Assembly: GCA_024277375.1 (NCBI GenBank)
Contig: JAJRVD010000027.1
Span: 19,063 to 83,062 of the forward strand
Direction: 5' to 3'
Source: Candidatus Omnitrophota bacterium
GTDB taxonomy: Bacteria > Omnitrophota > Gorgyraeia > Tantalellales > Tantalellaceae
Length of the DNA: 64,000 nt
Below the pieces are notes generated by a model that was given only the letters and a program-made list of their open reading frames with translations, ran no database searches and was not told the origin of the DNA. This document shows, piece by piece, positions 6,623 to 60,239 of the stretch; the first letter of the stretch is position 1; each line of letters begins with the position of its first letter. A program made the translations under genes and the position numbers.

Positions 6623-8035
6623 TTATTTAGATAGGCTGTCTATGAGCGCGCGCGCCTTTACGAGAGTTTCTTCATATTCCAGCTCGGGGTCACTGTCGGC
6701 GACAATACCGCCACCCGCGGCGAAATATACTTCGGTCCCTTTTACTACCATTGTGCGGATAGCGATATTAAGGTCCATAGTATCATGGAAACTTATGTAG
6801 CCTATAGAGCCTGTGTAGATGCCCCTTTGTGTAGGTTCCAACTCATCCAGTATTTCCATAGCTCTTATTTTAGGGCAACCTGTTATTGACCCTCCGGGAA
6901 AAGCGGCTTTTATTACCTCCACCAGGCTTGAAGTTTTATTTTGCTCTCCTTGTATAACGGATATTGCCTGAAATACGGTAGGATATGTTTCGATCCTTCT
7001 GGATTCGACAACTCTGATCGATCCTGGTACGCAGACCCGGCCGAGATCGTTCCTCTCGAGGTCCGTTATCATGGATAGTTCCGCTGTATCTTTAGTGCTC
7101 GTGTCTAATTCAAGCTTAAGAGCTTTGTCTTCCTGGGGATTGCCTCCACGTCGGCGAGTTCCTTTCATGGGACGTGTCTCGATAGTGTTTTGGCGTTTTC
7201 TCAAAAAGAGTTCGGGGCTTGAGGAAATGATCTTAGAGTCTATAAAATTCAGATACGCGCTGAAGGGTGAGGGGTTTAATTTGTTTAGTTTTAAGTATAA
7301 ATCATATGGATCATGTGGCCATGTGGTTTTAAAGCGTTGAGAAAGACATGCCTGGTAGATGTCACCCGCGCGAATATGTTCGATAACGCTTTTTATGGCG
7401 TTGGTGTAGGATTTCTTGGTAAAATTTAATTCGATAGATCCTGATACTGATATTGGGGTCAGGTCTCCACATTTGACATTGTGAGGTCTTGTCGGAAGTG
7501 TCAAATGTGGAGACCTGACCCCAATATGCGCGACAGTGATCCGGCCAGGCTCTTGCCTGTCATAGATAAGGATCGTTCGGTAAAAAACAAAGTAGATATC
7601 GGGGAGGTCCAAGTCATCTTGCGCTTTTTGCGGCAGTATTTCCAGACGATCTTTAAGGTCATAGGACAGGTAGCCTATGCCTCCGGCGGTGAAAGGCAAG
7701 TTGGTCGTATTATTGGTTTTATAGTGTGTGAGTATGGACTCCAGGCATTTAAAAGGATCTTCCTGAATGCTGAAACTGTCCCTTTCAGTTCGAATGGTCA
7801 AGTTTGTGCCTTTGCCCTTAAAAGTGAGGAAGGGGTGCGTTCCGATAAAGGAATACCTGCCCGCATCTGTTTCAAGGGAGCTGTTCAGGAAAGAAGTGTC
7901 ATCTTGATCGGAGAAGTGAGAATAGAGATCCTCTATCGAACAGTTAATGGGGATTTGTTCGACAGTTGGGGTAGAGTTTATTTTTGGGAGATTTGATAAT
8001 AGTTCGCGGCCGGAGGCCGCTCCTGCGTTATTCAT
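6623..8035 (-). CDS. pabB: Aminodeoxychorismate synthase component I (PabB; chorismate-binding enzyme, TrpE/PabB family)
   Basis: C-terminal chorismate-utilising signatures are present: PGGSITGCPKIRAMEILDELEP, RGIYTGSIGY and AGGGIVADSDPELEYEETLVKA. These are near-identical in pattern to E. coli PabB. The 470-aa length fits. The first roughly 12 codons are encoded by a REP-B repeat, so the true start is uncertain. Confidence 0.8.
   Translation of the reverse strand: MNNAGAASGRELLSNLPKINSTPTVEQIPINCSIEDLYSHFSDQDDTSFLNSSLETDAGRYSFIGTHPFLTFKGKGTNLTIRTERDSFSIQEDPFKCLESILTHYKTNNTTNLPFTAGGIGYLSYDLKDRLEILPQKAQDDLDLPDIYFVFYRTILIYDRQEPGRITVAHIGVRSPHLTLPTRPHNVKCGDLTPISVSGSIELNFTKKSYTNAIKSVIEHIRAGDIYQACLSQRFKTTWPHDPYDLYLKLNKLNPSPFSAYLNFIDSKIISSSPELFLRKRQNTIETRPMKGTRRRGGNPQEDKALKLELDTSTKDTAELSMITDLERNDLGRVCVPGSIRVVESRRIETYPTVFQAISVIQGEQNKTSSLVEVIKAAFPGGSITGCPKIRAMEILDELEPTQRGIYTGSIGYISFHDTMDLNIAIRTMVVKGTEVYFAAGGGIVADSDPELEYEETLVKARALIDSLSK
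8002..8027 (-). repeat. REP family B copy (gttcgcggccggaggccgctcctgcg)
   Basis: A near-exact match to the REPs flanking the RAYT at 55965-55991 and 56501-56526. It contains the GCGGCC-GGAG-GCCGC hairpin. It overlaps the pabB start and the ispH stop. Confidence 0.7.
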
Positions 8036-12245: not shown

Positions 12246-12329
12246 GTGAACCGTCCTTTAGAGTAGAGGGTAGGGGCGTAATGCGTTACGTCCCTACGTT
12301 TTAATATTATTTATTGTGAACGATTTTTA

Positions 12330-14861: not shown

Positions 14862-16879
14862 AGAAATATTTGTTGCACGACGATAATGGTAAACTAGAGA
14901 CCCATATAGATTTCAAAGGGAGTCTTAACGATCAGCAGTATGAAGTTGTAACCGCCGCGGAAGGCCCATGTCTTGTTCTCGCCGGCGCGGGAAGCGGTAA
15001 GACCCGAACTCTCATATATCGCCTGGCATATCTTTTGGAACGTGGAATCCCCCCGGGTAATATTTTGCTTATGACCTTTACTAATAAGGCAGCGAGAGAG
15101 ATGCGCGAGCGCACTGAAATGCTTTTAAAGTACAGGCCCAAAGGGTTATGGAGCGGGACATTCCATCATGTGGGGAATAGATCTTTACGCGCGTACGCTC
15201 CCGAAGTTGGTTACGAACGAGACTTTGGTATACTTGACCAGCATGATTCCCGTGAGATTATTAAGTCATGTGTAAAAAAAATGCGTATTAGTCCGGGAAA
15301 AGAAAAGTTTCCTAAGCCGTCGGTGATACAGGCAGTAATAAGTCTCGCGACAAATACCCAAAGAATCACTAAAGAAGTCTTGGAGGATAGATTCCCGTAT
15401 CTATTGAAATTCGCGCCACAGATAAGCGCGATAAAAGATCTCTATGAAAAAAAGAAAGTTTCATCGGGGAACATGGATTATGACGATCTTCTTTCAAAAT
15501 GGAAATGGCTTCTGGAGAACGTAACTGAGGTAAGAAAAAGATATTCTGAGCAGTTTCGGTACATAATGGTAGATGAATATCAGGATACGAACTTTCTTCA
15601 AGCGGACATAATAAATATCCTTAGCGGTCACCACTGTAATTTATTGGCGGTAGGAGATGACGCCCAATCTATTTATTCATTTCGCGGTGCCCGAGTAGAG
15701 AATATACTACAGTTCCCAAAAAAGTTTAAGAGCGCCAAGGTCTTTAAACTGGAGATCAACTATCGTTCAACTCCCGAAATACTGGACTTGGCGAATGATT
15801 CTCTTTTAAATAATGAGAACCAGTTTGAAAAACAGCTTAAAGCGGTAAACCCGTCTATAGATAAGCCCGCGCTGGTCGAAGTAAGAGATCCTTATGCTCA
15901 GGCGAAATTCATCGCGCAGAGGGTAAAAGAAATGCGTGAAGAGGGTATTGAGATGAAAGATATCGCTGTTCTTTTCAGGGCGCATTATCAGTCAGCCGAG
16001 CTTGAAATGGAGCTTGTTAAGAGAGGAATGCCATATATTGTCCGAGGAGGAATACGCTTTTTTGAACAGGCTCATATCAAGGATGTATTGGCTTATTTGA
16101 AAATAGTCATTAATCCTATTGATGAAGTAGCCTGGATCCGGGCTCTTGTTCTGTGTCCTGGTATCGGACCGGGATATGCGGAGAAGATATATTCCGCTTT
16201 TTGCGGATCGGGCACTGATATTGCAAGATTTCTGAAAAGTGGTTTCGTGAATAATTTGCCCAAAAAAGCGCAGGATGGATACGGGCGATTTCAGAAGATA
16301 ATGCGCGCTATAATTTCTGAAGATGTCAACGGTGATACCGGGAGCATGATAGCAGCCGTATTGGACGCGGGGTATGAAACGCATCTTCAGGTAGCTTTCG
16401 AGAACGCGAAAGACCGCGTAGACGATATACATGAACTGATAAATTTTTCTCATGAATATGAGACATGCGCGGATTTTTTAAGTGATATAACGCTCAGGGA
16501 AGGATTTAGGGGAGAGATTGTTCAGGACGGGCAAGACGAAGAATAACAGCTTGTGCTTTCAACCATACATCAGGCAAAAGGTTTAGAGTGGAAGGCTGTT
16601 TTTGTGATAGGTCTTTGTGAAGGGCAGTTCCCGCATCCCAAGGCTTATGCGGAATCGGCGGAGATGGAAGAAGAGAGGCGTCTTTTTTATGTAGCGGCAA
16701 CCAGAGCGGAAGAATTTTTATACCTTATTCATCCCCGTACGCGTTATGACTATCAGCAGGGGACGGTAATAGCTCGCCAGAGCAGATTTCTTGAAGAATT
16801 GGATCCGGATGATTATGAGGTGTGGGAAGTGGGGTCGAATTCGTTCCCAAGCAACGAAGAAAGGACCATTGAGCTGTAA
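14858..16879 (+). CDS. uvrD: UvrD/PcrA-type ATP-dependent DNA helicase, interrupted by one in-frame TAA (16544-16546); possible pseudogene or readthrough
   Basis: Walker A LAGAGSGKTRTLIYRLAYLL and motif II MVDEYQDTN are present. The C-terminal piece (16553-16879) carries motif VI, LSTIHQAKGLEWKAVFVIGL...RRLFYVAATRAEEFLYL. Both parts are in the same frame and are separated only by TAA, CAG, CTT. The track splits the gene into 562-aa and 108-aa ORFs. Confidence 0.8.
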
Positions 16880-17420: not shown

Positions 17421-18044
17421 ATGAGTACTATTATAAAATCCATATTTTTCGATCTTGGTAACGTCTTGGTTAAACTTAAGCCGGAAATGCTTGCGGAGGG
17501 TTTTGCCCCTTATTGTAAGGCTAAAAAGGGTGAGATCATCCCCTATGTTATGGAGCAATCCAAGCAAGTGGATAGATACATGGAAGGTAAATCCACGTCT
17601 TCTCAGTTTTATACAAACACCTGCAAATATTTTAAAATGAAGATCAAGTATTACGACTTTTACGAGATCTGGAACAGTATGTTCGATCCGTATCCGGAGA
17701 TGGATGATATTATAAGGACTCTTAAAAAAGACTATCCCGAAATTAAATTGCTGCTGCTTTCTAATACCAATGAGGCGCATTACGGATATATTAAAGAGAA
17801 GTATAAGATCTTGGAAGTATTGGATCATCATGTGGTTTCACACGAAGTCGGTGCTCAAAAACCTGACCCCAAAATATTTAATGAGGCGTTAAAGATAGCC
17901 GGTAGTATTTCCAAAAATACCTTTTATACGGATGATCGTCAGGATCTGATTGATGCCGCGCGTGTTATGGGTCTTCGGGCGTTTCAATTTACAGATCACG
18001 AATCTTTTAGCAAACAACTCTCCAAGTTTGAAATTAACGTATAA
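17421..18044 (+). CDS. HAD-superfamily phosphatase, YihX-like (alpha-D-glucose-1-phosphate phosphatase type)
   Basis: The N-terminus IFFDLGNVLV matches the YihX-type motif I. A C-terminal YTDDRQDLIDAA motif IV-like segment is present. Confidence 0.7.
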   Translation: MSTIIKSIFFDLGNVLVKLKPEMLAEGFAPYCKAKKGEIIPYVMEQSKQVDRYMEGKSTSSQFYTNTCKYFKMKIKYYDFYEIWNSMFDPYPEMDDIIRTLKKDYPEIKLLLLSNTNEAHYGYIKEKYKILEVLDHHVVSHEVGAQKPDPKIFNEALKIAGSISKNTFYTDDRQDLIDAARVMGLRAFQFTDHESFSKQLSKFEINV

Positions 18045-18060
18045 GAATAGGTAGGCTTGA

Positions 18061-18152
18061 TATATGAGGGGCCATACCGTGCTCAAACATGCGGAAGAAC
18101 AGAAGTATTATTCTGTTCTTCCGAACTGCGCGCGGTATGGCCCCTCATATAT
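18061..18152. repeat. Compound hairpin (20-bp outer stem atatatgaggggccataccg / cggtatggcccctcatatat enclosing an inner 11-bp hairpin)
   Basis: Outer arms at 18061-18080 and 18133-18152 are perfect inverted repeats. The inner segment ggaagaacagaa...ttctgttctcc also pairs. The motif ccgaactgcgcgcggta recurs at 48987-49003. Confidence 0.6.
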
Positions 18153-18240
18153 CAAGCCCTGGAATAGTAATGTTATCCTGAACGAAATGTTCGTAGGGCA
18201 TGAAGCTGAATGATTTCAATTGAAAGCTATTCTGTGGAGT

Positions 18241-18280
18241 GGGGGGACAGAGCCTTTTTGGGCAAAAAGGCTCTGTCCCC
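18241..18280. repeat. Palindromic repeat family A (GGGGACAG-N-CCTTTTTGGGCAAAAAGG-N-CTGTCCCC)
   Basis: A perfect hairpin with a roughly 17-bp stem. Related copies are at 18694-18733 and 55531-55590. Confidence 0.65.
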
Positions 18281-18451
18281 ATTTTAACTATAGATGTAGT
18301 GTGGGATGTTAAATGATTATAATAAAAGCACTTATGCTCAAAAGCCGTTAACATTCAAAAAGGTAGCCATGTGGCCTTGCTAATGTTGTTACTATTGGGT
18401 AACATATAAGTGCAAATAAAAGGTAGATAGGGGCTAAAGAATATATCTTTG

Positions 18452-18597
18452 TGGGGGCGCGGCATGCAGACTGTGTCGTAATTTGTTTCGCGGATGACCG
18501 CATACAACATATTGTAGGGGTTCGATTTATCGAACCCGATATAACGGGCTTGATGAATCAAGCCCCTACATTATGACACAGTCTGATGCCGTGCCCC
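18452..18597 (+). repeat. Family D structured repeat, copy 1. It is about 115 nt, with an outer stem cagactgtg/cacagtctg and two internal hairpins. It could be an ncRNA or a MITE.
   Basis: The core tgtgtcgtaat...gtaggggttcgatttatcgaacccgatataacgggcttgatgaatcaagcccctacattatgacacag is conserved in 4 copies. The outer stem pairs with a G-U wobble (tgtgtcgtaat / attatgacaca). The internal hairpins are ggttcgat..atcgaacc and gggcttga..tcaagccc. Confidence 0.7.
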
Positions 18598-18693
18598 TAC
18601 GGATGATTTTTTTTGCTCGGTTATTTCAAACATTTTAAAAGCATATGAGGTGCAGGCGATGAAACTGTCATTGAGAAGAGGAGCTAAGAGCAA

Positions 18694-18733
18694 GGGGGAC
18701 AGCCTCTTTTTGGCCAAAAAGAGGCTGTCCCCC
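18694..18733. repeat. Palindromic repeat family A copy (gggggacagcctctttttggccaaaaagaggctgtccccc)
   Basis: A perfect hairpin. It lies inside the first 35 codons of the six-frame ORF 18650, so the real start of the giant gene is probably downstream at 18755. Confidence 0.65.
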
Positions 18734-18754
18734 TTGCTACGTTGTTCGCTCGTG

Positions 18755-21700
18755 ATGACGGGGAAGGGTATTGCCTCGCTGGTCACTTTGATAGCTTTTG
18801 TATTAAATATTTTAGGCGCGGAAGTTATTAGTATAAAAGCATATGCCGCTATTTCCCCTGAAATAGCTTCTACCAATCCCGCTGAGTATAATTTTCTGAA
18901 TGTCGATTCTTTTACATTACCCAAATACCTTGGAACCATAAAAGATTTGTGGAAGTCTGCCTCCGGACGAGACACGGTTATTCATATCCAGGACGCTCAT
19001 TGTAACTATGCCGCGCAGGATACGATAGCTAAGATGATAGAACGTATCGATTCGGAGTACGATATAGACGTGATAAATCTTGAAGGCGGCGCGGAGGATT
19101 ATGACCTGTCTTTGTTTACCGATATTGAGGATAAGGGCGTAAGACAAAAAGTAGTCGACTATTTTATGAAGCTTGGCATGGTCTCCGGTGCCGAAAGCTT
19201 TGTTCTTAATAATCAGGATAAAGCAAAGTTATGGGGCGTCGAAGACGTGGATCTTTATTTTGACAACCTTAGCGCCTACCGGAATTCGCTGGAGTACAAG
19301 GAAGAAGTTGACGGGTATCTTAAAATGCTCAGCCGTTTGCTGAATGAACTTAAAATAAACGTTTATTCGAACGAACTTTTGGAGTTTGATCTTAAATATT
19401 CCGCTTACAAGGCGGGTAATCTGGCTTTCAGAGATTATGTGATCTATATTCGTGATAAGGCCGCGAAATGTGCTATCGACATGGAGGAGTTTGAGAATAT
19501 TGCGTTATTGTCTGAGTCTCTTGAACTTGAGGGCAAAATTGATTTCAAAAAGGCCAATCGCGAGAGGGATATGCTCATAGAAGAGCTCCGGCGCATGGTC
19601 TCGAAAAACGAGCTTGAAAACCTGGTGCTCAAGACCTTACAGTTCAAGAAAAAGATAATTTCCCGGAAAGACTATTATACGTATCTTTTTGAAAAAGCGC
19701 GGCTTGTGAACATCGGCTTGGATGGGTTCGGCGAACTCAGGAAATACACTGACTATATCTCAAAGTATCAGACCGTTGATAGATCAAAGATATTAGAAGA
19801 AATGTCTATTATTGAGGATGCGATCAAGGATGTTCTATGCGTAAAAGATAAAGATCGTACGCTTGTCAGGTTGTCCAAGAATTTCGCGCTCCTAAAGAAC
19901 ATATTCAACGTCTCGCTCACAAAAGACGACTATGTGTATTACAAAACCAACGAACCCGCGTTCGCGGTGAAAAACTATATTTCATTCATTAAGGCTAACG
20001 ACTCATCATTGCGTGGAGCTGTGCCTTTCTCGCCGTTGCGAGGAGCCGACCTATCCTCTGTCATTGCGAGCCCGCCGAAGGCGGGAGAAGCAATCTCTGA
20101 AAACATCTATAATCTCGACCGCCACCGCGAACAAATATCCCGTTTTTACGAAGATGGCATCAAGCGTGACGATGCATTCTTGCGCAACCTCAGGTTTCAA
20201 CGTAAGCAGGGAGTAGGAAGCAGGGAGCAGGGTGTCGTAGGAGAGGCCTCTAGCCGTGAACAAAAAACGACAATTTTAGTTACCGGCGGATTTCACACCA
20301 AAAATTTATGCGAGCTGTTTAAAGAGAAAGGTATCTCCTACGTTTCTATCATGCCTAACTTCCGGAATGAGAATGGTTATGAAAGCCCGTATTTTAACCT
20401 TCTCGCTGGTAAGAAAAATGATGTAGCCGCGGCGCTTACAAGTGATATATCTTCGTTGGCGTTATATTCTGATTTATTGCAGAACGGTCTAAACAATGGA
20501 GATTTTACCTCGAATGTTAAAGCGGTTAGAAGGTTGTGGGTAAGTCTGGTTGCCGCTCAGATCAGGAAAAACGGGAGAAATGTCATATTCGGAGATATTA
20601 ATGGTCGTTATAGACGCTATTCATTCAACTCCGAAGATGGTGATCCTGTAGCGGGACTTACAATAAACGGAAAACAGGTATACGCAAGGAATTTTGGTGG
20701 GGAAAGATCCCTTCAGGCTGAAGCGAAGGCATTATATGAGGAAATTTCCAGAGATATTGTATCCTTTGCCGCGGAAAGAGAGGAGATAAAGTCCGCGGTT
20801 GTCAGGTTAAGAGAGATCTTTAGTACTTTTCCCGACGTTGTTATCTCTGAAGTGAGAAATTTCTGGGAAAATGAAAAAGAAAGCACCGGAAATGTTTTCA
20901 GAGCTGTCGAGTTCTTTGATCTGATGCCCGAGATAATGCTTAATGCGAAAGTAGAGCGGTTGAAAGAAGCGGCGTTGAGTTTTGTCGACCGTCAACTGGA
21001 ACATATTTTTGACAGAGAAAACGCGGTGGCCATATATAACGAGATAATATCTACCGACGAAGGTATTCCTCAAGACCTGCTCAAATACGCTTTGTACTAC
21101 AGGAATCTAAAGGAGGGTAAAACTCTTACGGATGAGCAGTTGGCCCTGCATGGCCTCAGCAGCAAAGAGGACTTCCCATATTCCCTCGAGGTCGATCGTG
21201 TCTTAAAACACAAGGATGATAGTAATCCTAAAAAACTTTTGCTTATTTATAATGCTGAACATACCAGTATGGTAGGGATGGGAGACCAGATATCAAATGT
21301 GGTTCCCCTGGTTCAGGCACTTAAGGATAAATATCCCAAGTTGGACATAACCATATATACGGATAAACCCTTTGTGTATGAGGCTCATGACAATGTCCGT
21401 GTATTTAGCATGTCTTCTCCCGGAATAAATGCCGAAGAGGTTTTTGATATGGCGATCGATTATTCGGACAGTAAGAGTCGAGAGGAATATCCGGATAAAT
21501 ATTTAGTTCAAGAAGCGCAGATCTCTATTGTAGGGGATTTCAATAATTTAACAGTTAAGGCTAAGGGGTTACCGCCTTTGGGCATAAAAGTTCGTAATCG
21601 AAGTAATGCATATTCATTAAGCTTACGGTTATGTGCCGAATTGAGACTTCCTGTCAGGATAGGAACAGAACAACCTCAGACAAGTTCGATAGTTCTTGGC

Positions 21701-24700
21701 CCGGGTAGTGAGGAAGCCGATATGTGGTGGGAGGAAAATGTAGTATTGAAAAACACAGAAAAGAGAAAAGTCGTATTTTTGAATCCGTATGGAGGGGAAT
21801 GGAAGGAAAAGGGATACATTTATAACGATAGGCTAGTCAAGGATATAGAAGCCCTTCTTGAAGACGGAAACTATATTGTTATATCTCCAAATGACACTCG
21901 TTGGGGTACTCGTGAAAAAATCGAAGAAATGCTGAAACTATTAGATGCAGCAAAACAAAAATACATTACTATTTCAAAGGGTCCGTCAGAGGCTGGAAAT
22001 TTAATAAAACATTGGTTATATAGGGCTGATCATATTGTCACGGTTGAGGGTGGTACCGCGCATTTGGCCTACAATTTGGGTAAAACATTTACGCTTGTCT
22101 GGAAAAGAGGCGCGGGATTACTACATGATATCCCGCCTATGTGCGATCTTGGTCAGGAGTTAATCCCGATAGGAGGTAAACCGCAGGATATAGTGGATGC
22201 TGTTAAAAGAGCTTTTGAGAGTGACGATGAAGGCTCAAAAGTTACTAGTATCGGAACCGGAATTTTGCGAAAAACAAAAACAGTACTATCCGGTCTTTTG
22301 GTCTTTCTTGCCGGATCTTCAGCTTTGCAAATACTTTTGGCGGGCGATCTCTTCGCGGCGACGCCGGATGCGATTATGCAGGCTACTGCGACGCCGTGGG
22401 GCTGGATTGCAGTAGTGGTGGTTGCGGGTTTTATTGTGTATAGGTATTTTGCGATGTCTGCAGAAAGAATGGGTACAAAAGTTATTCCATTGGGAATAGC
22501 AGGTTTGATCTTTATGGGGGTTCAATGTAGCTATGCAGCCGCGTTGTCTCCACGTGAGGGTAAAACAAAAATATTAGTTTCATCTGCTGAGTTTCAGGAA
22601 AAACAGCAGCAGATCCGAGAAATGATAAAAGGGCTTGCGGATAGCGAAGAACATCTTTCAGGGAAAGAAAGGGAGTTGCTTGAAGGAATATTAAGTCTTA
22701 TCGAGGATGGAGATATCAAGATTAAATATGATCCTGAAAGGAATTATGCGTATGCCGATAAAGAGAATAAAGAAGTCGGGTTGCCTGAGAGTAGCTTCAT
22801 GGACAGGTATCGATTGGCGAGTGCCATAATTCATGAATTATTACATCAGCTATGCGCGAAACGTAATATCGATTTTTCAGATAAGATTAAAACGAGTGGG
22901 TTTAATGATTCAAATGATTATTGGCAATGGCTTGATCCCGGGGAGGAAGGATGGGTGCTCCGAAATACCATGATGATCATGAATCAAATCCCGATGGAAG
23001 CATTAGGCCTGAAACTGCTACTTGCGGAAGTCCCAAATCAAGAATCTTTCAATACTCAGATATTGACATATGATAACGAACCCATTACGAATGTTGACAG
23101 AATTATAGAATTGGCAAAAGATCCGGAAATGGTTATGGAAAAAAGAAGATTTCTGGTGAAGTTGTTACCTCTCATAAGCCTTAATATCGCGGAAAAAGTC
23201 GGAAACACCGGGATCATAAGGCCAGTTGACGCGGAAACCTCAAAAGAGGCAGAAGAGGCTTTGCTGGCTTTGAAAAAGTATTATGAGAGCGAACAAAATA
23301 TATTAGCAACGAAACATAAAATCCTGAAAAACAATAAGAAGAGACCCAAGCTGGTTAATGGGGCGGTCCGTCTGTCCTGGAAAGATCCCTCCAAGCTAAC
23401 ATCAGAAGATAAAGATCTCGTTGAATGGTGGTCAAATGTTAAATTGCTGGAAACGATAGAGCTATCAAGAAGGATGCTTAACGAGAGCAAGGTAAGTGTA
23501 GATAAAAAGTTAGATGAGTTTACTGTCCTAATAGTGGATGGGATCAAGCGTGAAATGAAGGTATCTGATTTGAGAATAGGGATGGCACGTATGTTGTATG
23601 GGAGTGAAGAAAAACTCGTAAAAGATGTCTTGAGGGAGTTGAAGCCTTGGGAAATCGACCTGATCGTGTATTACCAAAAAGAGATAAGGATCAAGCTAAA
23701 ACAGACTATTTCATATTATGAGGGAAGAGAGTTTGAGTTTAATAAGAACAACTTAACGGGAGCAATTAGCACGATAATGATGTCGCTTTTGCGGGATGTC
23801 TCAAAAACCGAGTATAACAGCATTTATGATCATAATAATCGTGGCCTTAAATGGGATGACCCGGGACGGTGGCATGGGCTCACGTTTGATGATAGATGGT
23901 ATGAGATCGGCAACCTGAATGGTTTATCATATAATTACTATAACGAACATCGTAAAAATGAAACAGAGGAAGAAAAGTACAAAGCTGATAATCCAAACAG
24001 GCCGAAAAATTTCGTTAACAATAACGCGACAAAAGGGTTTCGCGTGGATATGAGGGAGACATATTTATTCATGCGCTTCTATCCTGAAGAACTAGCTAAG
24101 ATCGTTAAGAAGGACAGAGGTGTAGCCGCAAAAGTAGAATTATTGGAAGAATATATGGGCAAATTGAAGCGGAATGTTAATAAAACAGCAAAATGGAGAG
24201 GAGACAGACAAAAAAAGAAAGAGAGTGAAAAGACATCAGACGGTATCAATACACTTAAAGGAATAATGGCTTTCGCGATAGCCCTGCCGCTTGTGCAGAT
24301 GCTTTTGGCGGGCGATCTCTTCGCGGCGACACCGGGGGTGCTTGTGCCCTCGATATTTAACTCGTTTAATGTTATAGGGTTCTTGTTAACGGTGGTGTGC
24401 TTAGGTTTAGCCGGGCTTATTCTTTATTATGATACCAATGATGCGGACGAATGGGATGATATCCCAGAGAGTGAGTCGATAAGGGCCTGGCAGGTTCTCT
24501 TAGGAGGGCGTGAGTGGGAAAAGATGGGGAAAGAATTCACTGACCGCTTAGCGATCTTGACCCCACAGGAGAGTGAGAACCGAACACTTCTTTTTGAGTT
24601 TTTGGAGAGATTCGGAAGAAAAGATTTACTCGCCCATATCAAGAGAAAACCGGATGAATTTTTGCCTGTTCTTGAGCATTTGAGGGGTAGTGAATTCATT

Positions 24701-27700
24701 TCAGGATACTTTGGAGAATTACTATATAGGGTAGACCGGTCGGGGGAGAAAGAACAGGAATTGCTGGATCTTGACTTGAAGACAGAACCATTGAAGGTAT
24801 GGGAATTGATAGATATTCTCATTGAAGTTGATTCATTTCAGCAAGATCTATACGAGTTCCTGACAAAAGATACCGCATATTCGGCAATACCCGGACAACA
24901 GTATTTGCCGCTTAATGTGAATGTCGTAAATGTTGTAGGGCAGATGGTTGAAGAAACGAGAAGTGCAAATCGGGTGAATATAAGGGGCAATCTTATCGCG
25001 ATAAGCGGGCAATTCCCCGGATATTATGCCGCTATTTGCGATTCTATTCTGAGGAATCCTGCCAGGATTCTAGAATTTGACATTGCCCCGGAAGTTGTAG
25101 AAAGAAATCTAAAATTTCTTCAACCTGAAAATTCCAAAGATCATATAACCTCTTTTGAGGGGTTTGTGGCGTTTCTGAAGAGGGAAAGTAAAGTTACCGA
25201 TAATATGGGGAAATCACCCATTGGTAAAGGTGTTCTGGATATATCGAAACGTGTTTTTAAATTCTTCGGCAAGGAAATAACTCCGGTTGTTGAAAATACA
25301 TGGATCCCGGTATTTGAAGAACTTGTGATGTTTTTGGTTTTGGCGGGCGGATATTTGGGCGGGTTATTCGTTCTTTCCGCACTGCCGTATATCCTCACCA
25401 GAATTATATTTACCGCATGGCACCTGAAAAACGAAAGTGGCACCTGGTTGCAGAAAATGCTTGTGCCGGGCATCGCGTCTGTGTTTGCGCTTATACCGGT
25501 GATGGCGGTTTTGGTATTGCCGGCGGTGTCCGCAGAGTTAATGTTAGCGGCGGCATTGGCTTTGGGAACCGGAACACATGTGCTAGGAAACCGGAGAGTA
25601 CACAAAAAGCGGATGGATGCATTTAAGCGTATCTTCGAAGAGAAAAAAGAAACTCTCGTTAAACAGGTAAGTGATGAAGAATTATTGGATGAATTTATCG
25701 GATATCTAGATGTGAATGTCAAAGAACTATTCGGGATCGGATTGCTTCTTGAGATAAGAGAGTTCTCTAAGTCTATACCTTTATCCAGAGATGAACAAAC
25801 TCGTCGCGGAAGACAAAGGGCGATTCTTTTAATGGCCGGGTTGAATGTCAGCGAAACGGAGTTGTACAAAGAAAATCAAAGAAAGATCGAGGAAGAACGC
25901 GTAATAGCGGAAGATCTAAATGGTATGGAAAATATTCATGATCTGATAGAGGGAAAGTTTGTTACGGTAAAACAGCTGAAAAGGGCCATAGAACTGTCCG
26001 CTGGGAACATAACCTCAGCGCTTGAAACATTAAATAAACTGAAAGACGTTATTAAAAAACACGGTATCGATGAGCTGTTTGAATTAGCCGATTTGGAGCG
26101 CGTATCCAATAATGTTCCGTGGAATTGTTTTGAATGGGTTGATTATGATTCCGCGCGAGATTTATTGGATCAATACGGCATCAAGCCATTTCTCAAAATG
26201 AGACGTTTGGGAGTAGGAGAATATTCATATCGTTCCATAGATTCTTATTCTCTGACGCTTCGGGGCATATTTAATTTGGTTAGGGACATGAGAGATGGGG
26301 ATATCAGTGAGAGATATGGGATAAGTGTTACCGGTTCTAATGTCGAGAAAATAACCATCAACATCATCAAAGAAAAGATATCGCTAAAAGGGCCGTCCAG
26401 TTTGCCTGTTAACATGTTCCCGGAAGATGAGATCGAATTTTTAGAAAAAAGTCATGAGGATACATACCGGCGTGAGAGCGAAAAAAACATGGATCGTTAT
26501 CTGAACAGGGAAAAACATAAAAAAGCGATATTGTCGTATATGCTGCTTTGCGAACGTTACGGCCCGGATAACATTAGGCGTCTTGTGCGGGATAACGTGC
26601 TGGAGAAGTGGAGCGAAAAAGTAGAGTCAATTAAAGACCAGTTGAGAGATCTAAAATCCGTGATCGACTTGCCGAGTGTCGGGATAGAACCGTTTGTTGA
26701 GTTTTCCGGAGGGAATGAAGACGGGCTTTGGCCGCTGACATTTATTGAAAAAGAAAAATGGGCACAATTTCTTACGTCGATACTAATTCAAAGAGGAGAT
26801 GTCACCGCGAAAAATAAAAGGCTCAGCGATCTTTATATCAACAATATGCTCGCTTCGGTAGGGAACAATATTGTTCCGAATGTGTCTATGATCAATGTTA
26901 TCGCGGAACTCCTTACACATAACGCGCAAAGCGGGGTACATCCCGTAGAGAGTTTTTTGCTTTCCGCGCTTGGTGAAGCGGGATTAAACAAGGGTTCAAT
27001 AGAAAAAATCTTAGAATATCTGGCGAAGAACAAAAAAAGTGAGATAAAAAGGTCGCAAATTATACGGGCCTTAGCCGGTATATATTGGGGATTTAAGTAT
27101 GAACGCTTTTCGGCGGGAACAATAGATACGCGAATGATAAACGCTATTATCGAGACGGAAGACACTCGCCGATTAAGCGCGGCGCTGAATTTTATCCCCG
27201 CGTTAATTGATCTTCTCGAGTCGGGAATACTTGCCAAAGAAGAGATCGAAACCGGGACAAGATCGGGAAATATAGTTGACAAAATCGGAGGGTTATTGAA
27301 AAGTAAGATTGAAGAAACATTTAGTATAAAGATCAGTGATACCGATTTGGAGGTACAGGCGGCTCTTTCCGACACGTATTTTCTGGCGGATTTATTCAGT
27401 TTTCGAAGAAAGTATAAGGAAGAAGACGAAAACGCCTATAAGATATTCCTGGGATTGGTCAAAGCGTATTTTGAGAACGGCAGTAAAGGTGTGAGAGAAT
27501 ATAAAAACTCAAATGAGCTTGTCAATGTACAAATCCCTGAAAGGATAAAGGAGAAAGGATTTGAACAACTTTCGCGCCTCAGGACGTTCGCGCGGTCGGG
27601 GGAAGGTGAAGAGATGAGTGTATTTGACCGACTATTTAAAACAACATTAAGAAATTATGATGAGCATTCTAAGGAAATGAAATTTGATCCCGGTTCGATC

Positions 27701-29623
27701 AGCGCGGCGTCAACGGAAGAAATAAGTAACTTTGAGAAGAGTATAGAGGAGTTTCGCGGGGGAATAAGTAACATTGAATTAAAGAAAGCTGTAGAGCATG
27801 CTATAGCGTCGGGAGATACTAATACGTTAAAGAAGTTAGAAAATCTATCACGTCCGGATAAAAAGTCACGCGGATATGCTATCGGATCGATCGAAAAATT
27901 GTACGCGATGCGGCAAGAAGGTAGCGTGGTCGAAGCGGCTATGATAATCAAGAGCCTGCGCGGTATCAAAGATATTTCCGTCGGGGAACAGGAAAAAGAG
28001 CTCAGGACATTATATTCCTCCAGCAAAGAAAAGATTGAGGAGCTTATTCCGACATTGAGGTATATCCGCGGCAAAATGCAGGCTAAAAATAAACCCGTAG
28101 CGATAATTATAGGAGGAATGATTGGTTTATTGACAGGATTGGAAAAATTCTCAACAGGAAAGAGCGATATATTATCGGAGAAGAAAATCACGGCGGAAAT
28201 AAGTTTTGACCTGAAAGAGATCTTAAAAATAGGGCGTTACGGCGCCAGCGGCGAAGGTAATTGCCAGCATAGCAATAGTCCGGGTGAGAGCAACCATAGT
28301 TTAATGAGTTTTATAGGGGACGCTCATGAACTTATTATTCTGTTTAGAGATGATGACGGTATTGTCGTAGGGCAGGCGCTGATGCACGGAGTATACCTGG
28401 AGACCGGAGATTTTGTTTATATGAAAGAGGATGTTTACACTAATGATAATTCCCTGAAAGCGTTGATGGAAACCGCGGCAAGGAGAATGGGTAAGGCAAT
28501 AGCTAATTTTTACGGAATTAAAGTTTTAGATCCAGGGGCAGTCGAGAATAAAAAGATTTTTAATAACATAAAAATACCGCCAAGTAAGGTATTTCGTTAT
28601 TTAGACTCATTGGGCGGAGAAGTGTACACGTTTATGGAATCCATGCCGCTTGAAAAACCTTTATTGGCAGGGGTAGTTGAACCTATACACATTCGGGGCG
28701 GACGGGAAAGTAGCTATAGATTGTCTCCCATCGGCGGGATGTTGAGTGCGGATCAGCTGATCGCCCGTGCACAGGACCCTAAGATTTCTGCCGCGGAATT
28801 GGTCGGAAATCTGAAGCTGACCGGATTAGATCAAGCACATGTGGTTCAGGAGGCTTTGGCTGATCCGGAATATGCCGACAAGCTCAAAGAATTTAACAGG
28901 TTGCTTGCCAGGGCTCTGGGGGGAACCGAACTTGTCGAAAAGGCGAAAAGGGAGGAGAGGGAAGAAGCGATCGAAGATCGGCAGGCGGTGACGGTGGAGG
29001 TATTTGGGGAGGTTAACAGGAAAACCGATACGGTGAGAGCGGTTATAGGTGTTCCCAAAGGCATGCCGCAGAAAGTACTGCAGAAAATGCTTCGTGAAGT
29101 TAACAGAGGCCTTGCCAAAAATGGGTTTGGAGAGAGAAACGATACGCATCAGGTCATAGTGTTTGAAATGGATGCTGACAATAAAGATTTAACGGAAAGT
29201 AACCAGGCCGCGGCAGTAGAAAAAGCCCGGAAAGATCTATCCAAAAAAGGAATGATCGTTCTTTTTTCGCCCGAGACGGACAAGTTGCCGCTTGCGGAAC
29301 TCACGGTTGAAAAGTACAAGGATCAAGAAAATATTACTATTATCAGAGATGCTTATTCAGATTCCAAGCCGCAAGAAAAACAGTTCCTTGATGTTGATGT
29401 AAGGGCGGCACTCGCTAGGCATATAGCTTTTTATTATAACGGCAGTGATCAAGCATCCGCGATAAGCGCGATAAATGCTTTGATGAGGCAGATATCCGAT
29501 GAGCATAAGGACATATCGGATATAAACGAACTATTGGCCATGGTTGTTAGAATAAGGCCGATCGATTATGGGGAAATAACGCAGTGGGCCGAAGCGCAGA
29601 TAGCGACGGCAACGTCGCTGTAA
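18755..29623 (+). CDS. Giant (about 3620 aa) polytopic membrane multi-domain protein with an embedded GT9 (heptosyltransferase-like) domain
   Basis: A 10.9-kb open frame. The ATG at 18755 is the first start downstream of the family-A palindrome. An N-terminal TM helix is present. Region nt 18920-20450 carries IHIQDAHCNYAAQ and ILVTGGFHT, a weak resemblance to the TraB/GumN/ChaN fold. Region nt 21230-22110 matches the GT9 pattern: KKLLLIYNAEHTSMVGMGDQISNVVPLVQALKDKYPKLDITIYTD and ADHIVTVEGGTAHLAYNLGKTFTLVW. An HExxH motif (IIHELLHQL) is near nt 22835. There are two TM bundles, each beginning with the identical motif LLAGDLFAATP (nt 22339 and 24301). A further 4-helix TM bundle is near nt 25300-25600. 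Confidence 0.8.
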   Translation: MTGKGIASLVTLIAFVLNILGAEVISIKAYAAISPEIASTNPAEYNFLNVDSFTLPKYLGTIKDLWKSASGRDTVIHIQDAHCNYAAQDTIAKMIERIDSEYDIDVINLEGGAEDYDLSLFTDIEDKGVRQKVVDYFMKLGMVSGAESFVLNNQDKAKLWGVEDVDLYFDNLSAYRNSLEYKEEVDGYLKMLSRLLNELKINVYSNELLEFDLKYSAYKAGNLAFRDYVIYIRDKAAKCAIDMEEFENIALLSESLELEGKIDFKKANRERDMLIEELRRMVSKNELENLVLKTLQFKKKIISRKDYYTYLFEKARLVNIGLDGFGELRKYTDYISKYQTVDRSKILEEMSIIEDAIKDVLCVKDKDRTLVRLSKNFALLKNIFNVSLTKDDYVYYKTNEPAFAVKNYISFIKANDSSLRGAVPFSPLRGADLSSVIASPPKAGEAISENIYNLDRHREQISRFYEDGIKRDDAFLRNLRFQRKQGVGSREQGVVGEASSREQKTTILVTGGFHTKNLCELFKEKGISYVSIMPNFRNENGYESPYFNLLAGKKNDVAAALTSDISSLALYSDLLQNGLNNGDFTSNVKAVRRLWVSLVAAQIRKNGRNVIFGDINGRYRRYSFNSEDGDPVAGLTINGKQVYARNFGGERSLQAEAKALYEEISRDIVSFAAEREEIKSAVVRLREIFSTFPDVVISEVRNFWENEKESTGNVFRAVEFFDLMPEIMLNAKVERLKEAALSFVDRQLEHIFDRENAVAIYNEIISTDEGIPQDLLKYALYYRNLKEGKTLTDEQLALHGLSSKEDFPYSLEVDRVLKHKDDSNPKKLLLIYNAEHTSMVGMGDQISNVVPLVQALKDKYPKLDITIYTDKPFVYEAHDNVRVFSMSSPGINAEEVFDMAIDYSDSKSREEYPDKYLVQEAQISIVGDFNNLTVKAKGLPPLGIKVRNRSNAYSLSLRLCAELRLPVRIGTEQPQTSSIVLGPGSEEADMWWEENVVLKNTEKRKVVFLNPYGGEWKEKGYIYNDRLVKDIEALLEDGNYIVISPNDTRWGTREKIEEMLKLLDAAKQKYITISKGPSEAGNLIKHWLYRADHIVTVEGGTAHLAYNLGKTFTLVWKRGAGLLHDIPPMCDLGQELIPIGGKPQDIVDAVKRAFESDDEGSKVTSIGTGILRKTKTVLSGLLVFLAGSSALQILLAGDLFAATPDAIMQATATPWGWIAVVVVAGFIVYRYFAMSAERMGTKVIPLGIAGLIFMGVQCSYAAALSPREGKTKILVSSAEFQEKQQQIREMIKGLADSEEHLSGKERELLEGILSLIEDGDIKIKYDPERNYAYADKENKEVGLPESSFMDRYRLASAIIHELLHQLCAKRNIDFSDKIKTSGFNDSNDYWQWLDPGEEGWVLRNTMMIMNQIPMEALGLKLLLAEVPNQESFNTQILTYDNEPITNVDRIIELAKDPEMVMEKRRFLVKLLPLISLNIAEKVGNTGIIRPVDAETSKEAEEALLALKKYYESEQNILATKHKILKNNKKRPKLVNGAVRLSWKDPSKLTSEDKDLVEWWSNVKLLETIELSRRMLNESKVSVDKKLDEFTVLIVDGIKREMKVSDLRIGMARMLYGSEEKLVKDVLRELKPWEIDLIVYYQKEIRIKLKQTISYYEGREFEFNKNNLTGAISTIMMSLLRDVSKTEYNSIYDHNNRGLKWDDPGRWHGLTFDDRWYEIGNLNGLSYNYYNEHRKNETEEEKYKADNPNRPKNFVNNNATKGFRVDMRETYLFMRFYPEELAKIVKKDRGVAAKVELLEEYMGKLKRNVNKTAKWRGDRQKKKESEKTSDGINTLKGIMAFAIALPLVQMLLAGDLFAATPGVLVPSIFNSFNVIGFLLTVVCLGLAGLILYYDTNDADEWDDIPESESIRAWQVLLGGREWEKMGKEFTDRLAILTPQESENRTLLFEFLERFGRKDLLAHIKRKPDEFLPVLEHLRGSEFISGYFGELLYRVDRSGEKEQELLDLDLKTEPLKVWELIDILIEVDSFQQDLYEFLTKDTAYSAIPGQQYLPLNVNVVNVVGQMVEETRSANRVNIRGNLIAISGQFPGYYAAICDSILRNPARILEFDIAPEVVERNLKFLQPENSKDHITSFEGFVAFLKRESKVTDNMGKSPIGKGVLDISKRVFKFFGKEITPVVENTWIPVFEELVMFLVLAGGYLGGLFVLSALPYILTRIIFTAWHLKNESGTWLQKMLVPGIASVFALIPVMAVLVLPAVSAELMLAAALALGTGTHVLGNRRVHKKRMDAFKRIFEEKKETLVKQVSDEELLDEFIGYLDVNVKELFGIGLLLEIREFSKSIPLSRDEQTRRGRQRAILLMAGLNVSETELYKENQRKIEEERVIAEDLNGMENIHDLIEGKFVTVKQLKRAIELSAGNITSALETLNKLKDVIKKHGIDELFELADLERVSNNVPWNCFEWVDYDSARDLLDQYGIKPFLKMRRLGVGEYSYRSIDSYSLTLRGIFNLVRDMRDGDISERYGISVTGSNVEKITINIIKEKISLKGPSSLPVNMFPEDEIEFLEKSHEDTYRRESEKNMDRYLNREKHKKAILSYMLLCERYGPDNIRRLVRDNVLEKWSEKVESIKDQLRDLKSVIDLPSVGIEPFVEFSGGNEDGLWPLTFIEKEKWAQFLTSILIQRGDVTAKNKRLSDLYINNMLASVGNNIVPNVSMINVIAELLTHNAQSGVHPVESFLLSALGEAGLNKGSIEKILEYLAKNKKSEIKRSQIIRALAGIYWGFKYERFSAGTIDTRMINAIIETEDTRRLSAALNFIPALIDLLESGILAKEEIETGTRSGNIVDKIGGLLKSKIEETFSIKISDTDLEVQAALSDTYFLADLFSFRRKYKEEDENAYKIFLGLVKAYFENGSKGVREYKNSNELVNVQIPERIKEKGFEQLSRLRTFARSGEGEEMSVFDRLFKTTLRNYDEHSKEMKFDPGSISAASTEEISNFEKSIEEFRGGISNIELKKAVEHAIASGDTNTLKKLENLSRPDKKSRGYAIGSIEKLYAMRQEGSVVEAAMIIKSLRGIKDISVGEQEKELRTLYSSSKEKIEELIPTLRYIRGKMQAKNKPVAIIIGGMIGLLTGLEKFSTGKSDILSEKKITAEISFDLKEILKIGRYGASGEGNCQHSNSPGESNHSLMSFIGDAHELIILFRDDDGIVVGQALMHGVYLETGDFVYMKEDVYTNDNSLKALMETAARRMGKAIANFYGIKVLDPGAVENKKIFNNIKIPPSKVFRYLDSLGGEVYTFMESMPLEKPLLAGVVEPIHIRGGRESSYRLSPIGGMLSADQLIARAQDPKISAAELVGNLKLTGLDQAHVVQEALADPEYADKLKEFNRLLARALGGTELVEKAKREEREEAIEDRQAVTVEVFGEVNRKTDTVRAVIGVPKGMPQKVLQKMLREVNRGLAKNGFGERNDTHQVIVFEMDADNKDLTESNQAAAVEKARKDLSKKGMIVLFSPETDKLPLAELTVEKYKDQENITIIRDAYSDSKPQEKQFLDVDVRAALARHIAFYYNGSDQASAISAINALMRQISDEHKDISDINELLAMVVRIRPIDYGEITQWAEAQIATATSL

Positions 29624-30762: not shown

Positions 30763-30810
30763 AAAGGGACAGTCCACGCACTCACTACGTTAGTTTGGGA
30801 CAGTCCCTTT
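30763..30810. repeat. Palindromic repeat family A-prime (AAAGGGACAGTCC-acgcactc...-GGGACAGTCCCTTT)
   Basis: Related copies are at 32247-32292, 48932-48983 (inverted) and 51151-51192. It lies in the era/mgtE divergent intergenic region. Confidence 0.6.
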
Positions 30811-32246: not shown

Positions 32247-32292
32247 CCGGGGACAGTCCACGCACTCGCGTTGCTCGCTTGGGACAGTCCCC
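32247..32292. repeat. Palindromic repeat family A-prime copy (ccggggacagtccacgcactcgcgttgctcgcttgggacagtcccc)
   Basis: About 85% identical to 30763-30810. It sits directly after the mgtE stop and may act as a terminator. Confidence 0.6.
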
Positions 32293-33173: not shown

Positions 33174-33220
33174 TGCAGAGGTTGCCACGTCGTCCGCTTC
33201 GCGGACTCCTCGCGGTCGAA

Positions 33221-33331
33221 TTGTGTCGTAATTCGTTTTGCGGACGCTCGCATGCAATATATCGTAGGGGTTTGATCCATAGAACCCGATATAACGGGCT
33301 TGATGAACCAAGCCCCTACATTATGACACAG
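33221..33331 (+). repeat. Family D structured repeat, copy 2
   Basis: ttgtgtcgtaattcgttttgcgg...gtaggggtttgatccatagaacccgatataacgggcttgatgaaccaagcccctacattatgacacag. It is 55 nt upstream of purH. Confidence 0.7.
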
Positions 33332-33385
33332 CTTGAATGACGGGAGAGGCACTGTACGCTAAACGCTAGAAAAAAGGAAGTTTTC

Positions 33386-39760: not shown

Positions 39761-39835
39761 ACGTAGGAGCCGCCTCTGGCGGCGAATTGTAAATAATGTT
39801 CGCGGAATATCACCGAAGGTGATACCGCTCCCACG
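39761..39835. repeat. Inverted doublet of REP family B variants (acgtaggagccgcctctggcggcgaa ... ccgaaggtgataccgctcccacg)
   Basis: Same architecture as 32522-32609. It lies between the L,D-transpeptidase and accA. Confidence 0.6.
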
Positions 39836-44528: not shown

Positions 44529-44872
44529 GGATATTCCAGGAAGATAAGAAAGTTCGAACGCCCCGGTAAAATGGAGAAGGTATCAGAAGCTAAGCTATCA
44601 GACTTGTTGGCGGAATTCGGGATCAAGAAAAACATACAAGATCATGACAAAATAAAAGCTATCAGTAAAATGCAGCGGATGAGAGAGGAACACACCGAAC
44701 ATTTGCTTGAGAAAAAAGATGAGAGTAGGTTTGATCAGATGCGTGATGATAAAAAAAATGACAGATCCTCGGGCGGCGGTCAGAAACACTAGGGTTAGAT
44801 TGGTCACACTGCCAAGTGGTCAATAAATAGGCTTGTGCAAAATGGAACTTTTGTTATTCAGGGTGTGTCGTA

Positions 44873-44977
44873 ATTCGTTTTGCGGATGACAGCATACAAC
44901 ATATTGTAGGGGTTCGATTCATCGAACCCGATATAACGGGCTTGATAAATCAAGCCCGTACATTATGACACAGTCTG
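44873..44977 (+). repeat. Family D structured repeat, copy 3
   Basis: gtgtgtcgtaattcgttttgcggatgacagcatacaacatattgtaggggttcgattcatcgaacccgatataacgggcttgataaatcaagcccgtacattatgacacagtctg. It lies between the two FecR-domain paralogues. Confidence 0.7.
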
Positions 44978-55415: not shown

Positions 55416-55530
55416 ATAATATTGAATAAACAACATTTTTATTATACTTAACTTTGACTTAAAAGATAAGATATATTGAATAAAAATCAATAAAATGATA
55501 AAATTAAGAGCAACAGAAAGATAGTTGACA

Positions 55531-55590
55531 ATAGGAGCAATGGGGACAGCCTCCTTTTGACCAAAAGGAGGCTGTCCCCATTGCTCCTAT
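55531..55590. repeat. Family A-type perfect 28-bp-stem palindrome (ataggagcaatggggacagcctcctttt-gacc-aaaaggaggctgtccccattgctcctat)
   Basis: The two arms are exact reverse complements. It ends 18 nt upstream of the comEA start codon. Confidence 0.7.
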
Positions 55591-55608
55591 TGCCAGGAGA
55601 GATGAATT

Positions 55609-60080: not shown

Positions 60081-60200
60081 CAGACTATGTCAAGATGTAG
60101 GGGCTTGATTTATCAAGCCCGTTATATCGGGTTCGATGAATCGAACCCCTACAACATTATTGCAGGCAGCCCGTCGCGAAATGACTTTTGGTACAGTCTG
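60081..60200 (-). repeat. Family D structured repeat, copy 4 (inverted orientation)
   Basis: The reverse complement reads cagactgtacc...gtaggggttcgattcatcgaacccgatataacgggcttgataaatcaagcccctacatcttgacatagtctg. The core and outer stem are conserved and the 5' arm has diverged. Confidence 0.65.
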
Positions 60201-60239
60201 TTCGCGATGGATGACAGACAAGACAATGGAGGTAATATA

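Follow-up and report, generated by a model that had tools for sequence, protein, structure and literature searches.

Bacterial MITEs (miniature transposable elements with inverted repeats), such as the Correia elements of Neisseria, ERIC/IRU, RUP and MITEAba12, are small, non-coding, multi-copy sequences that are bounded by terminal inverted repeats (TIRs), flanked by a short target-site duplication (TSD), situated mostly between genes and able to fold into a long hairpin. All of these properties recur in family D, whose elements are about 120 nt long, a repeat family of a 64,000-nt stretch of DNA from Candidatus Omnitrophota bacterium (GenBank assembly GCA_024277375.1, contig JAJRVD010000027.1, forward-strand positions 19,063 to 83,062), referred to below as the window and used for all coordinates. 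One copy lies in a repeat-packed region between a gene for a HAD-family hydrolase and a giant open reading frame (ORF) of some 11 kb, the region with which this analysis is concerned. Family D differs from the MITEs named above in that its target is the apex of an existing hairpin and not a sequence motif, the TSD being any 3 bp; its interior exchanges unrelated classes of palindrome while its ends stay fixed; and no parent insertion sequence (IS) was found for it.

Palindromes are also the targets of certain autonomous elements. For IS1397 and ISKpn1 the site of insertion is the loop, where 3-4 bp are duplicated, and the ends of IS3 elements are typically TG...CA, termini that the ends of family D (GAGAC.../CAGAC...) do not have. 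Both elements are members of the IS3 family and, together with others of the IS110, IS4, IS256 and IS5 families, insert specifically into extragenic palindromes, including REP sequences, which are repetitive palindromes outside genes (Tobes and Pareja, 2006, PMC1525189). The mechanism proposed below for family D is of the same kind, whereas family D is non-autonomous and is hosted by Omnitrophota and probably Desulfobacterota. REP sequences, their inverted doublets (REPINs) and the bacterial interspersed mosaic elements (BIMEs) are mobilised by REP-associated tyrosine (Y1) transposases, or RAYTs (Nunvar et al., 2010, PMC2817692; Bertels and Rainey, 2011, PMC3116915). The interior, or cargo, of the D copies in the window likewise comprises two GTAG-headed imperfect palindromes, inverted and separated by a short linker, and its unit TGTAGGGGTTCGATTTATCGAACCCGAT is comparable to the P. 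entomophila REP TGTAGGAGCGGATTCATCCGCGAT in the REP table of Nunvar et al. (2010, PMC2817692). In contrast to a REPIN, the D doublet lies between inverted repeats of DDE style that are accompanied by a TSD, and the 64-kb window contains no RAYT gene.

Two further systems bear on a second repeat family of the region, family A, whose three copies in the window are designated A1, A2 and A3. Rickettsia palindromic elements (RPEs) are described, in a secondary account, as repeats fused in frame into genes (Ogata et al., 2000, cited in PMC3184786). As far as that account goes, A2 is similar in being a palindromic repeat read in frame near an N-terminus, if ATG 18659 is the start codon; its sequence and host are unrelated to those of RPEs, and it is shorter (50-54 nt). 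A1, a stem followed by ATTTT, and the hairpin that is split by family D, with its tract of eight T residues (T8), share the shape of a Rho-independent terminator with SPRITE-type repeats and intrinsic terminators, whereas A2 and A3 have no U tract, family A gives no evidence of mobility, and there is no sequence relation to SPRITEs. The elements of the region thus belong to known kinds, namely MITEs, REP/REPIN-like palindromes and in-frame palindromic insertions. Of wider interest is a MITE family that targets hairpin apexes and carries exchangeable palindromic cargo.

The window copies of family D, with the components of the site occupied by the copy in the studied region, are listed here, strand being given where a feature has one.

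18451..18463: left arm of a pre-existing GC-rich palindrome, GTGGGGGCGCGGC, identified from the sequence and the rebuilt empty site
18464..18466: left copy of the TSD, ATG, identified from the sequence and the flank alignment
18467..18585, plus strand: family-D copy of 119 nt with TIRs CAGACTGTGTCGTAAT (18467-18482) and ATTATGACACAGTCTG (18570-18585)
18513..18570: cargo of this copy, a REPIN-like inverted pair of GTAG-headed palindromes, TGTAGGGGTTCGATTTATCGAACCCGAT plus the inverse of TGTAGGGGCTTGATTCATCAAGCCCGTT
18586..18588: right copy of the TSD, ATG, identified from the sequence and the flank alignment
18589..18600: right arm of the split palindrome, CCGTGCCCCTAC, identified from the sequence and the fold
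18607..18614, plus strand: T8 tract directly past the base of the split hairpin, identified from the sequence and a terminator scan
33217..33335, plus strand: family-D copy, 82% identical, with degenerate ends and no TSD, between an ORF of unknown function and purH
44859..44977, plus strand: copy of family D with 93% identity that lies upstream of a gene with a FecR domain
60081..60200, minus strand: degenerate copy of family D in inverted orientation, upstream of the second very long ORF, which continues past the window's end

The family is a MITE with hairpin loops as its targets, and not a strand-specific RNA element, a conclusion drawn from its TIRs, its 3-bp TSD, its hairpin-apex sites, its intergenic spread and its lack of orientation bias. 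Elements of the family are about 119-155 nt long and have no coding capacity, and there are four in the 64 kb. The 16-nt TIRs of the copy at 18467-18585 contain a single G·T mismatch, and the local fold of 18440-18610 reaches -102.2 kcal/mol (z = -13.2). An exact 23-mer from the interior of the D core had no match in either species-representative genomes or JGI metagenomes, while an end-pair pattern (TGTGTCGTAAT, 72-100 nt, ATTATGACACAG) matched at least 120 metagenome contigs. The statistics that follow are drawn from 121 copies among the metagenome matches listed, from at least 120 contigs (L081-L200). Flank alignment of these copies showed conserved ends of the form GAGAC/CAGAC-TGTGTCGTAAT...ATTATGACACAG-TCTC/TCTG; the 16-nt TIR reads GAGACTGTGTCGTAAT, with the CAGAC... 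variant present in the window and in a few others. A perfect 3-bp direct repeat flanked 80 of the 121 copies, against 3 in a control shifted by one base and about 2 expected by chance. Empty sites were rebuilt by deleting the element and one copy of the repeat, and in 75 of 79 of them at least 7 bp spanned the duplicated triplet, which places the element in the apex of a hairpin. The mean minimum free energy (MFE) of the rebuilt sites was -23.4 kcal/mol, compared with -10.1 for random 53-mers from the same contigs. Nearly all metagenome copies (113 of 120) fell outside ORFs of at least 90 aa, and orientation relative to the flanking ORFs was without bias (++ 30, -- 19, +- 14, -+ 11). The family is widespread in environmental bacteria and sits nearly always in hairpin apexes. 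An apparently constant length of 121-123 nt was rejected as a finding, as it lies at the upper limit of the search pattern.

The site in the studied region follows the same rule. Excision of the D copy restores GTGGGGGCGCGGC-ATG-CCGTGCCCCTAC, an 18-bp stem with a 4-nt loop followed by U8 (-29.9 kcal/mol, z -4.65), and the base of the stem and the U8 tract are unaltered with the MITE in place. Split hairpin and T8 have the shape of an intrinsic terminator. Outside the element, the target of family D is usually a hairpin of the CCCTCTCCCC/GGGGAGAGGG type, so that three layers of palindrome are nested one within another. The palindromes inside the element are of at least three classes with no relation to one another (GTCAT..ATGAC, CCGTTC..GTCGAA and GTAG..CTAC), while the 16-nt ends are near-invariant. 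The hosts of two copies were judged from adjacent genes. A CAGAC-type copy lies beside a pitrilysin gene whose product is 80% identical to a protein of an Omnitrophica metagenome-assembled genome (MAG), which assigns this copy, on the evidence of its neighbour, to Omnitrophota; a GAGAC-type copy lies beside a P-type ATPase gene with 79% identity to a Deltaproteobacteria MAG protein, and its host is probably a member of Desulfobacterota, a weak assignment from a single gene of an often-transferred kind. An affinity of the D ends with IS5/IS1031, to which GAG termini and a 3-bp TSD would point, is not claimed.

A solo right end of family D, AATTATGACACAGTCTG followed by TTCGCGGGGATGAC, occurs in a different Omnitrophota genome (locus L074, 5510-5540) about 450 nt upstream of a member of the giant-gene family, and its flank resembles that of the 60-kb copy in the window. 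The inverted, degenerate copy at 60 kb itself precedes the second very long ORF (60237-63998), which has a FecR domain at its N-terminus, exceeds 1,254 aa and is cut off by the end of the window, and a second FecR-domain gene (45031-45930) likewise has a D copy upstream.

The cargo of the D copy has the features of a REP doublet. GTAG at 18514-18517 and CTAC at 18566-18569 each mark the head of a GC-rich imperfect palindrome within the 20-35 nt typical of REPs headed by GTAG or GTGG. The arms, 18508-18541 and 18542-18575, are 79% complementary (MFE -40.3, z -9.8), the two inverted REPs forming a larger hairpin. The palindrome split by the element, which reads GTGGGGGC...GCCCCTAC, is also of the GTAG-headed REP type. 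Copies of the doublet number four in the 64 kb, every one within family D. In L167, a locus from an Omnitrophota relative, the layout of the cargo is identical, and the stems are different in sequence yet complementary. Sequences of REP style occur elsewhere in the window as well. Four copies of GTAGGAGCGGCCTCCGGCCGCGAA, strikingly similar to Pseudomonas REPs, are found at 8003-8026 (minus strand), 39763-39786 (plus), 55967-55990 (plus) and 56502-56525 (minus), and their presence suggests that the genome may encode a RAYT transposase outside the window. Palindromes of the GTAG...CTAC type at 12270-12297 and 35692-35719 are relatives of the palindrome that the MITE has split; the first of them, or the second, lies between divergent genes and the other (GCAGGGACACGGCGCGCCGTGCCCCTGC) within a Mur-ligase-like ORF. 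A literature search for repeats in Omnitrophota returned nothing specific to the phylum.

The remaining features of the region, together with the third copy of family A, are as follows.

17421..18044, plus strand: gene for a HAD-family hydrolase, the upstream neighbour (Pfam PF00702/PF13419 and ORF list), with its stop codon at 18042-18044
18054..18158: hairpin 1, an orphan compound nested palindrome of 105 nt, from inverted-repeat search and RNA fold
18243..18280: A1, family-A copy 1, with perfect 18-bp arms and a 2-nt centre (MFE -37.5, z = -7)
18320..18325, plus strand: perfect TATAAT hexamer with a poor -35, a low-confidence candidate promoter in unique AT-rich spacer, read from the sequence
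18647..18661, plus strand: Shine-Dalgarno (SD)-like GAGGTG (18647-18652) and ATG 18659, the likeliest start of the giant gene, from an SD survey
18659..29623, plus strand: giant ORF of 3,654-3,657 aa without a Pfam match, from the ORF list and N-terminal homology
18689..18738: A2, family-A copy 2, with perfect 25-bp arms (MFE -50.1)
55526..55595: A3, family-A copy 3, with 34-nt arms that are 97% complementary

The window is a chromosome segment of 43% GC that is dense in housekeeping genes, among them those for glycogen phosphorylase, a UvrD-like helicase, NUDIX and HAD proteins, Era, MgtE, purH, leucyl-tRNA synthetase (LeuRS) and ComEA/ComEC, with five tRNAs. The window has 12 hairpins whose arms reach at least 12 bp, whereas 20 block-wise dinucleotide shuffles gave 0-3, with a mean of about 1. 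The excess is roughly twelvefold, and three of the 12 fall in the 716-nt stretch under study, which is 1.1% of the window. This stretch, flanked by the HAD gene and the giant ORF, had been described in the earlier note as a 700-bp intergenic region holding four different hairpin or repeat elements. All four are present, far beyond chance and with boundaries slightly wider than was noted, but a fifth had been overlooked, for the block labelled family D is a MITE together with the older palindrome that it splits. The description of the region as repeat-rich stands; its extent probably does not, since the likely start codon at ATG 18659 gives a true spacer of about 614 nt (18045-18658) and puts the last palindrome probably within the gene. 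That the giant ORF reads through the last family-A palindrome, as had been observed, is borne out by an ORF from 18650/18659 to 29623 that has no stop there. If the 105 nt of hairpin 1, the 38 nt of A1 and the 122 nt of the MITE plus TSD are taken off the 614-nt spacer, about 350 nt remain, which is within the usual range for homologous loci.

Hairpin 1 begins 9 nt past the HAD stop codon and consists of outer arms of 32 nt, 94% complementary (RNA MFE -81.9 kcal/mol, z = -14.1), with a separate hairpin at its centre (18092-18123, 13-bp stem, 6-nt loop). It resembles the D site in being one palindrome with another, different hairpin in its middle; it has no second copy in the window, and the fetched loci (1.5 Mb) contain no match to it. 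Family A is dispersed and perfectly palindromic, of the form GGGGACAG-NNN-CTTTTTGG/CCAAAAAG-NNN-CTGTCCCC, in which the variable triplets differ among copies yet remain complementary; no class more specific than dispersed palindromic repeat is assigned to it. A1 is followed by ATTTTAA and is weakly terminator-like. A2 is 89% identical to the intergenic A3, which ends 14 nt ahead of the ATG of a ComEA-like gene, and two of the three copies adjoin a gene start. Searches by blastn of 80 Omnitrophota loci, later extended to the full 200 loci, detected no relatives of family A outside the window.

Whether A2 is coding depends on the start codon of the giant gene, since it is read through without a stop. 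A GAGGT motif lies 7 nt before ATG 18659 and nothing comparable precedes the alternative, ATG 18755, 16 nt before which A2 ends; SD-like motifs are found in about 17 of 45 window genes. The N-terminus of a homologue, ARSDRDTIGLLKKR, aligns weakly with AKSKGDSLFLAKKR of the window protein, from residue 9 and in a part encoded partly by A2. Homologues have 10-40 residues ahead of the membrane helix, and both candidate starts lie at an acceptable distance from the conserved HIQDAHCN motif. These comparisons favour ATG 18659, though by no great degree of confidence, as the start of the giant gene. With this start A2 would be in frame in a cytoplasmic N-terminal leader, at about residues 11-27, and the annotation should be redrawn with ATG 18659 as the probable start and A2 within the gene. 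In-frame palindromes occupy the same N-terminal position in L009 (5983-6010) and L036 (4645-4676), both of the GTAG...CTAC type, in L034 (5992-6023) and in the database proteins P0032, P0038, P0050, P0061, P0063 and P0064; several database proteins have repeat peptides of the "LRQAQDK" type at this place. In-frame palindromes in the first ~30 codons thus recur across several independent lineages of this Omnitrophota gene family, and its N-terminal leader appears, from these sequences, to tolerate their insertion. Two more in-frame repeat modules lie deeper in the giant gene, at 20060-20097 and 20238-20261, both where homologues have no residues. One is GTCATTGCGAGCCCGCCGAAGGCGGGAGAAGCAATCTC, which encodes VIASPPKAGEAIS and is of a class found in many metagenome D interiors; the second module, GTAGGAGAGGCCTCTAGCCGTGAA, resembles a REP in degenerate form.

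The N-terminal 700 residues of the giant ORF match only Omnitrophota proteins, with a best identity of 48-49%. The N-terminal domain of about 600 aa, with the motifs HIQDAHCN and TGGFHTEN, defines a multi-copy family of membrane proteins (388 loci, all Omnitrophota), usually of 900-1,200 aa and without a Pfam model, and the window member is fused to a further ~3,000 residues. The homologous loci available for comparison are accordingly distant, paralogue-level relatives, all with at most 49% identity, which makes what they say about the spacer indirect, and an exact-sequence look-up of the HAD and Era proteins of the window returned no record. In 59 homologous loci the ORF-free gap upstream has a median length of 236 nt and reaches at least 600 nt in only 7, and 44 have no hairpin (arms of at least 12 bp) between -700 and +100. 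No sequence was shared with the upstream regions of these 59, save the solo D end in L074, and blastn of each element against the 80 Omnitrophota loci and then all 200 returned nothing for hairpin 1, family A or the unique spacer.

Two readings of the region had been put forward in the earlier note, a regulatory RNA leader controlling the giant gene and a hotspot of repeat insertion. The second is the one that the evidence favours: family D has TIRs and a TSD, its excision restores a clean hairpin, and the four D and three A copies in the window adjoin unrelated genes (purH, FecR-domain genes and the comEA-like gene). The region is thus likely a repeat-insertion hotspot, in which the spacer and the first ~80 nt of coding sequence are filled with non-autonomous palindromic repeats and no leader has evolved. 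The first reading, and with it a regulatory role for the region, is not supported. A dedicated cis-regulatory leader (riboswitch, attenuator or thermosensor) forming one long 5' untranslated region for the 11-kb gene would be in keeping with the length (614 nt) and very strong structure of the spacer, the hairpin and T8 that lie 45 nt before the start codon, the perfect TATAAT at 18320 and the tight control that very long genes might plausibly need. It is quite improbable in view of several observations. Rfam 15 returned no match at gathering score, and at E <= 10 only generic miRNA-hairpin models far below threshold. The elements are dispersed repeats found beside unrelated neighbours and in both orientations, without orientation bias in the case of family D, and one of them, flanked by a TSD, is a transposon. 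Each hairpin is a perfect palindrome complete in itself, so that mutually exclusive folds and alternative pairings are lacking, the SD and start codon lie in an unstructured region (18640-18700, MFE -8.6, z -0.26) and are not sequestered, and nothing is conserved upstream of the 59 homologues. In annotation, the structure that precedes the giant gene ought not to be labelled a riboswitch-like leader.

A selected stack of insulators and terminators is also unlikely, if less so than a leader. Hairpin 1, A1 and the split hairpin with T8 would in that case block read-through from the HAD operon into the giant gene and protect the 3' end of the HAD mRNA, with A2 and A3 stabilising mRNA 5' ends. Hairpin 1 begins 9 nt past the HAD stop codon, A1 and the split hairpin were called terminator-like, the empty site is a textbook hairpin with U8, A3 and A2 lie 14 and 16 nt before the comEA-like ATG and ATG 18755, respectively, and REP elements are known to stabilise transcripts (reviewed in PMC3184786). 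However, only one hairpin has a U tract, the insertion of D in the loop of a terminator looks accidental, A1 adjoins no gene end, and stabilisation or termination as a generic side effect of repeats gives no reason for this particular arrangement. A small RNA gene starting near 18332 (-10 at 18320-18325) and ending at 18614, about 280 nt long and about 160 nt before the MITE arrived, would account for the perfect TATAAT, for the canonical terminator shape of 18445-18614 and for the want of a convincing ORF between them; the poor -35, uncalled by the promoter scan, the lack of an Rfam match and the absence of homologous sequence from every fetched locus make this very unlikely. Amplification or assembly artefacts are scarcely credible as a source of the palindromes. 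Chimeras formed in multiple displacement amplification (MDA), for example by fold-back, can create perfect palindromes of 50-105 nt, but those of the window are short, embedded in unique sequence, confined to gene-free spacers or in frame, and recurrent at several loci, and family D is present in at least 120 independent assemblies.

Several observations weigh against a region filled by insertion alone. Family D is the only one of its elements with a demonstrable insertion signature: no target duplication was found for family A, and none was found when one was looked for at hairpin 1 and its inner hairpin. With the closest relative at 49% protein identity, an orthologous empty site could not show insertion. 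No autonomous element with D ends was recovered, the unpaired ends in the 1.5 Mb of fetched loci being unlinked to a transposase ORF. The sigma-70 scan located no promoter for the giant gene. The split hairpin with T8 could act as a real regulatory terminator and affect expression of the giant gene, and both the A copies that adjoin gene starts and the hairpins that recur at +30..+90 of the gene family could reflect selection rather than tolerance.

For the origin of the region as a repeat-insertion hotspot the following mechanism is proposed. A DDE-type transposase acting in trans would recognise the 16-nt ends of family D and cut and paste the element into extruded or single-stranded hairpin loops, for which the REP-loop-targeting elements IS1397 and ISKpn1 are a precedent (PMC1525189). 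A Pfam scan of essentially all window ORFs detected no transposase, Y1 or RAYT domain; the REPIN-like doublet of the MITE may be a further substrate, for an enzyme of RAYT type whose gene lies in another part of the genome. Template-switch (quasi-palindrome) correction, and not selection, may keep family A and hairpin 1 symmetric, and A2 would have landed in frame in the tolerant N-terminal cytoplasmic leader of the giant protein. Any side effects would be incidental and of a generic sort, in that the HAD transcript would be stopped or stabilised by hairpin 1 and the split terminator. Expression of the giant gene would then depend either on a weak promoter within the final ~45 nt or on read-through. 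The sigma-70 scan called no plus-strand site, TATAAT at 18320 included, and the candidates found by hand are weak.

A bolder extension of this proposal is doubtful, if conceivable: family D might be the non-autonomous form of an undescribed, apex-recognising transposon that crosses phyla (Omnitrophota and Desulfobacterota) and replaces its interior with any REP-like doublet active in a given host, producing 'Russian-doll' palindromes, while the habit of landing in terminator loops and the repeated arrival of palindromes in the first ~30 codons could be selected tuning of termination or early translation of very long genes. As it stands, the family consists of MITEs whose target is clearly structural, namely the apex of a hairpin; they duplicate 3 bp, carry host-specific palindromes and are present in many sediment and groundwater bacteria. 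Such elements inflate spacers, split terminators, add peptides to proteins and create spurious ORFs in metagenome-assembled genomes, and their recognition improves the annotation of Omnitrophota and similar uncultivated lineages.

Two other features of the window lie outside these families. The UvrD/PcrA-like helicase gene is broken by an in-frame TAA (16544-16546); its two ORFs, 14858-16546 and 16553-16879, share a frame and jointly cover the UvrD_C domain, and the interruption may point to a pseudogene, to an error in sequencing or to a gene that is split. A further repeat family, GGGACAGTCC...GGGACAGTCCC, has copies at 30766-30807, 32250-32291 and 51151-51190, one of which is just 5' of mgtE and one beside a tRNA-Ala gene.

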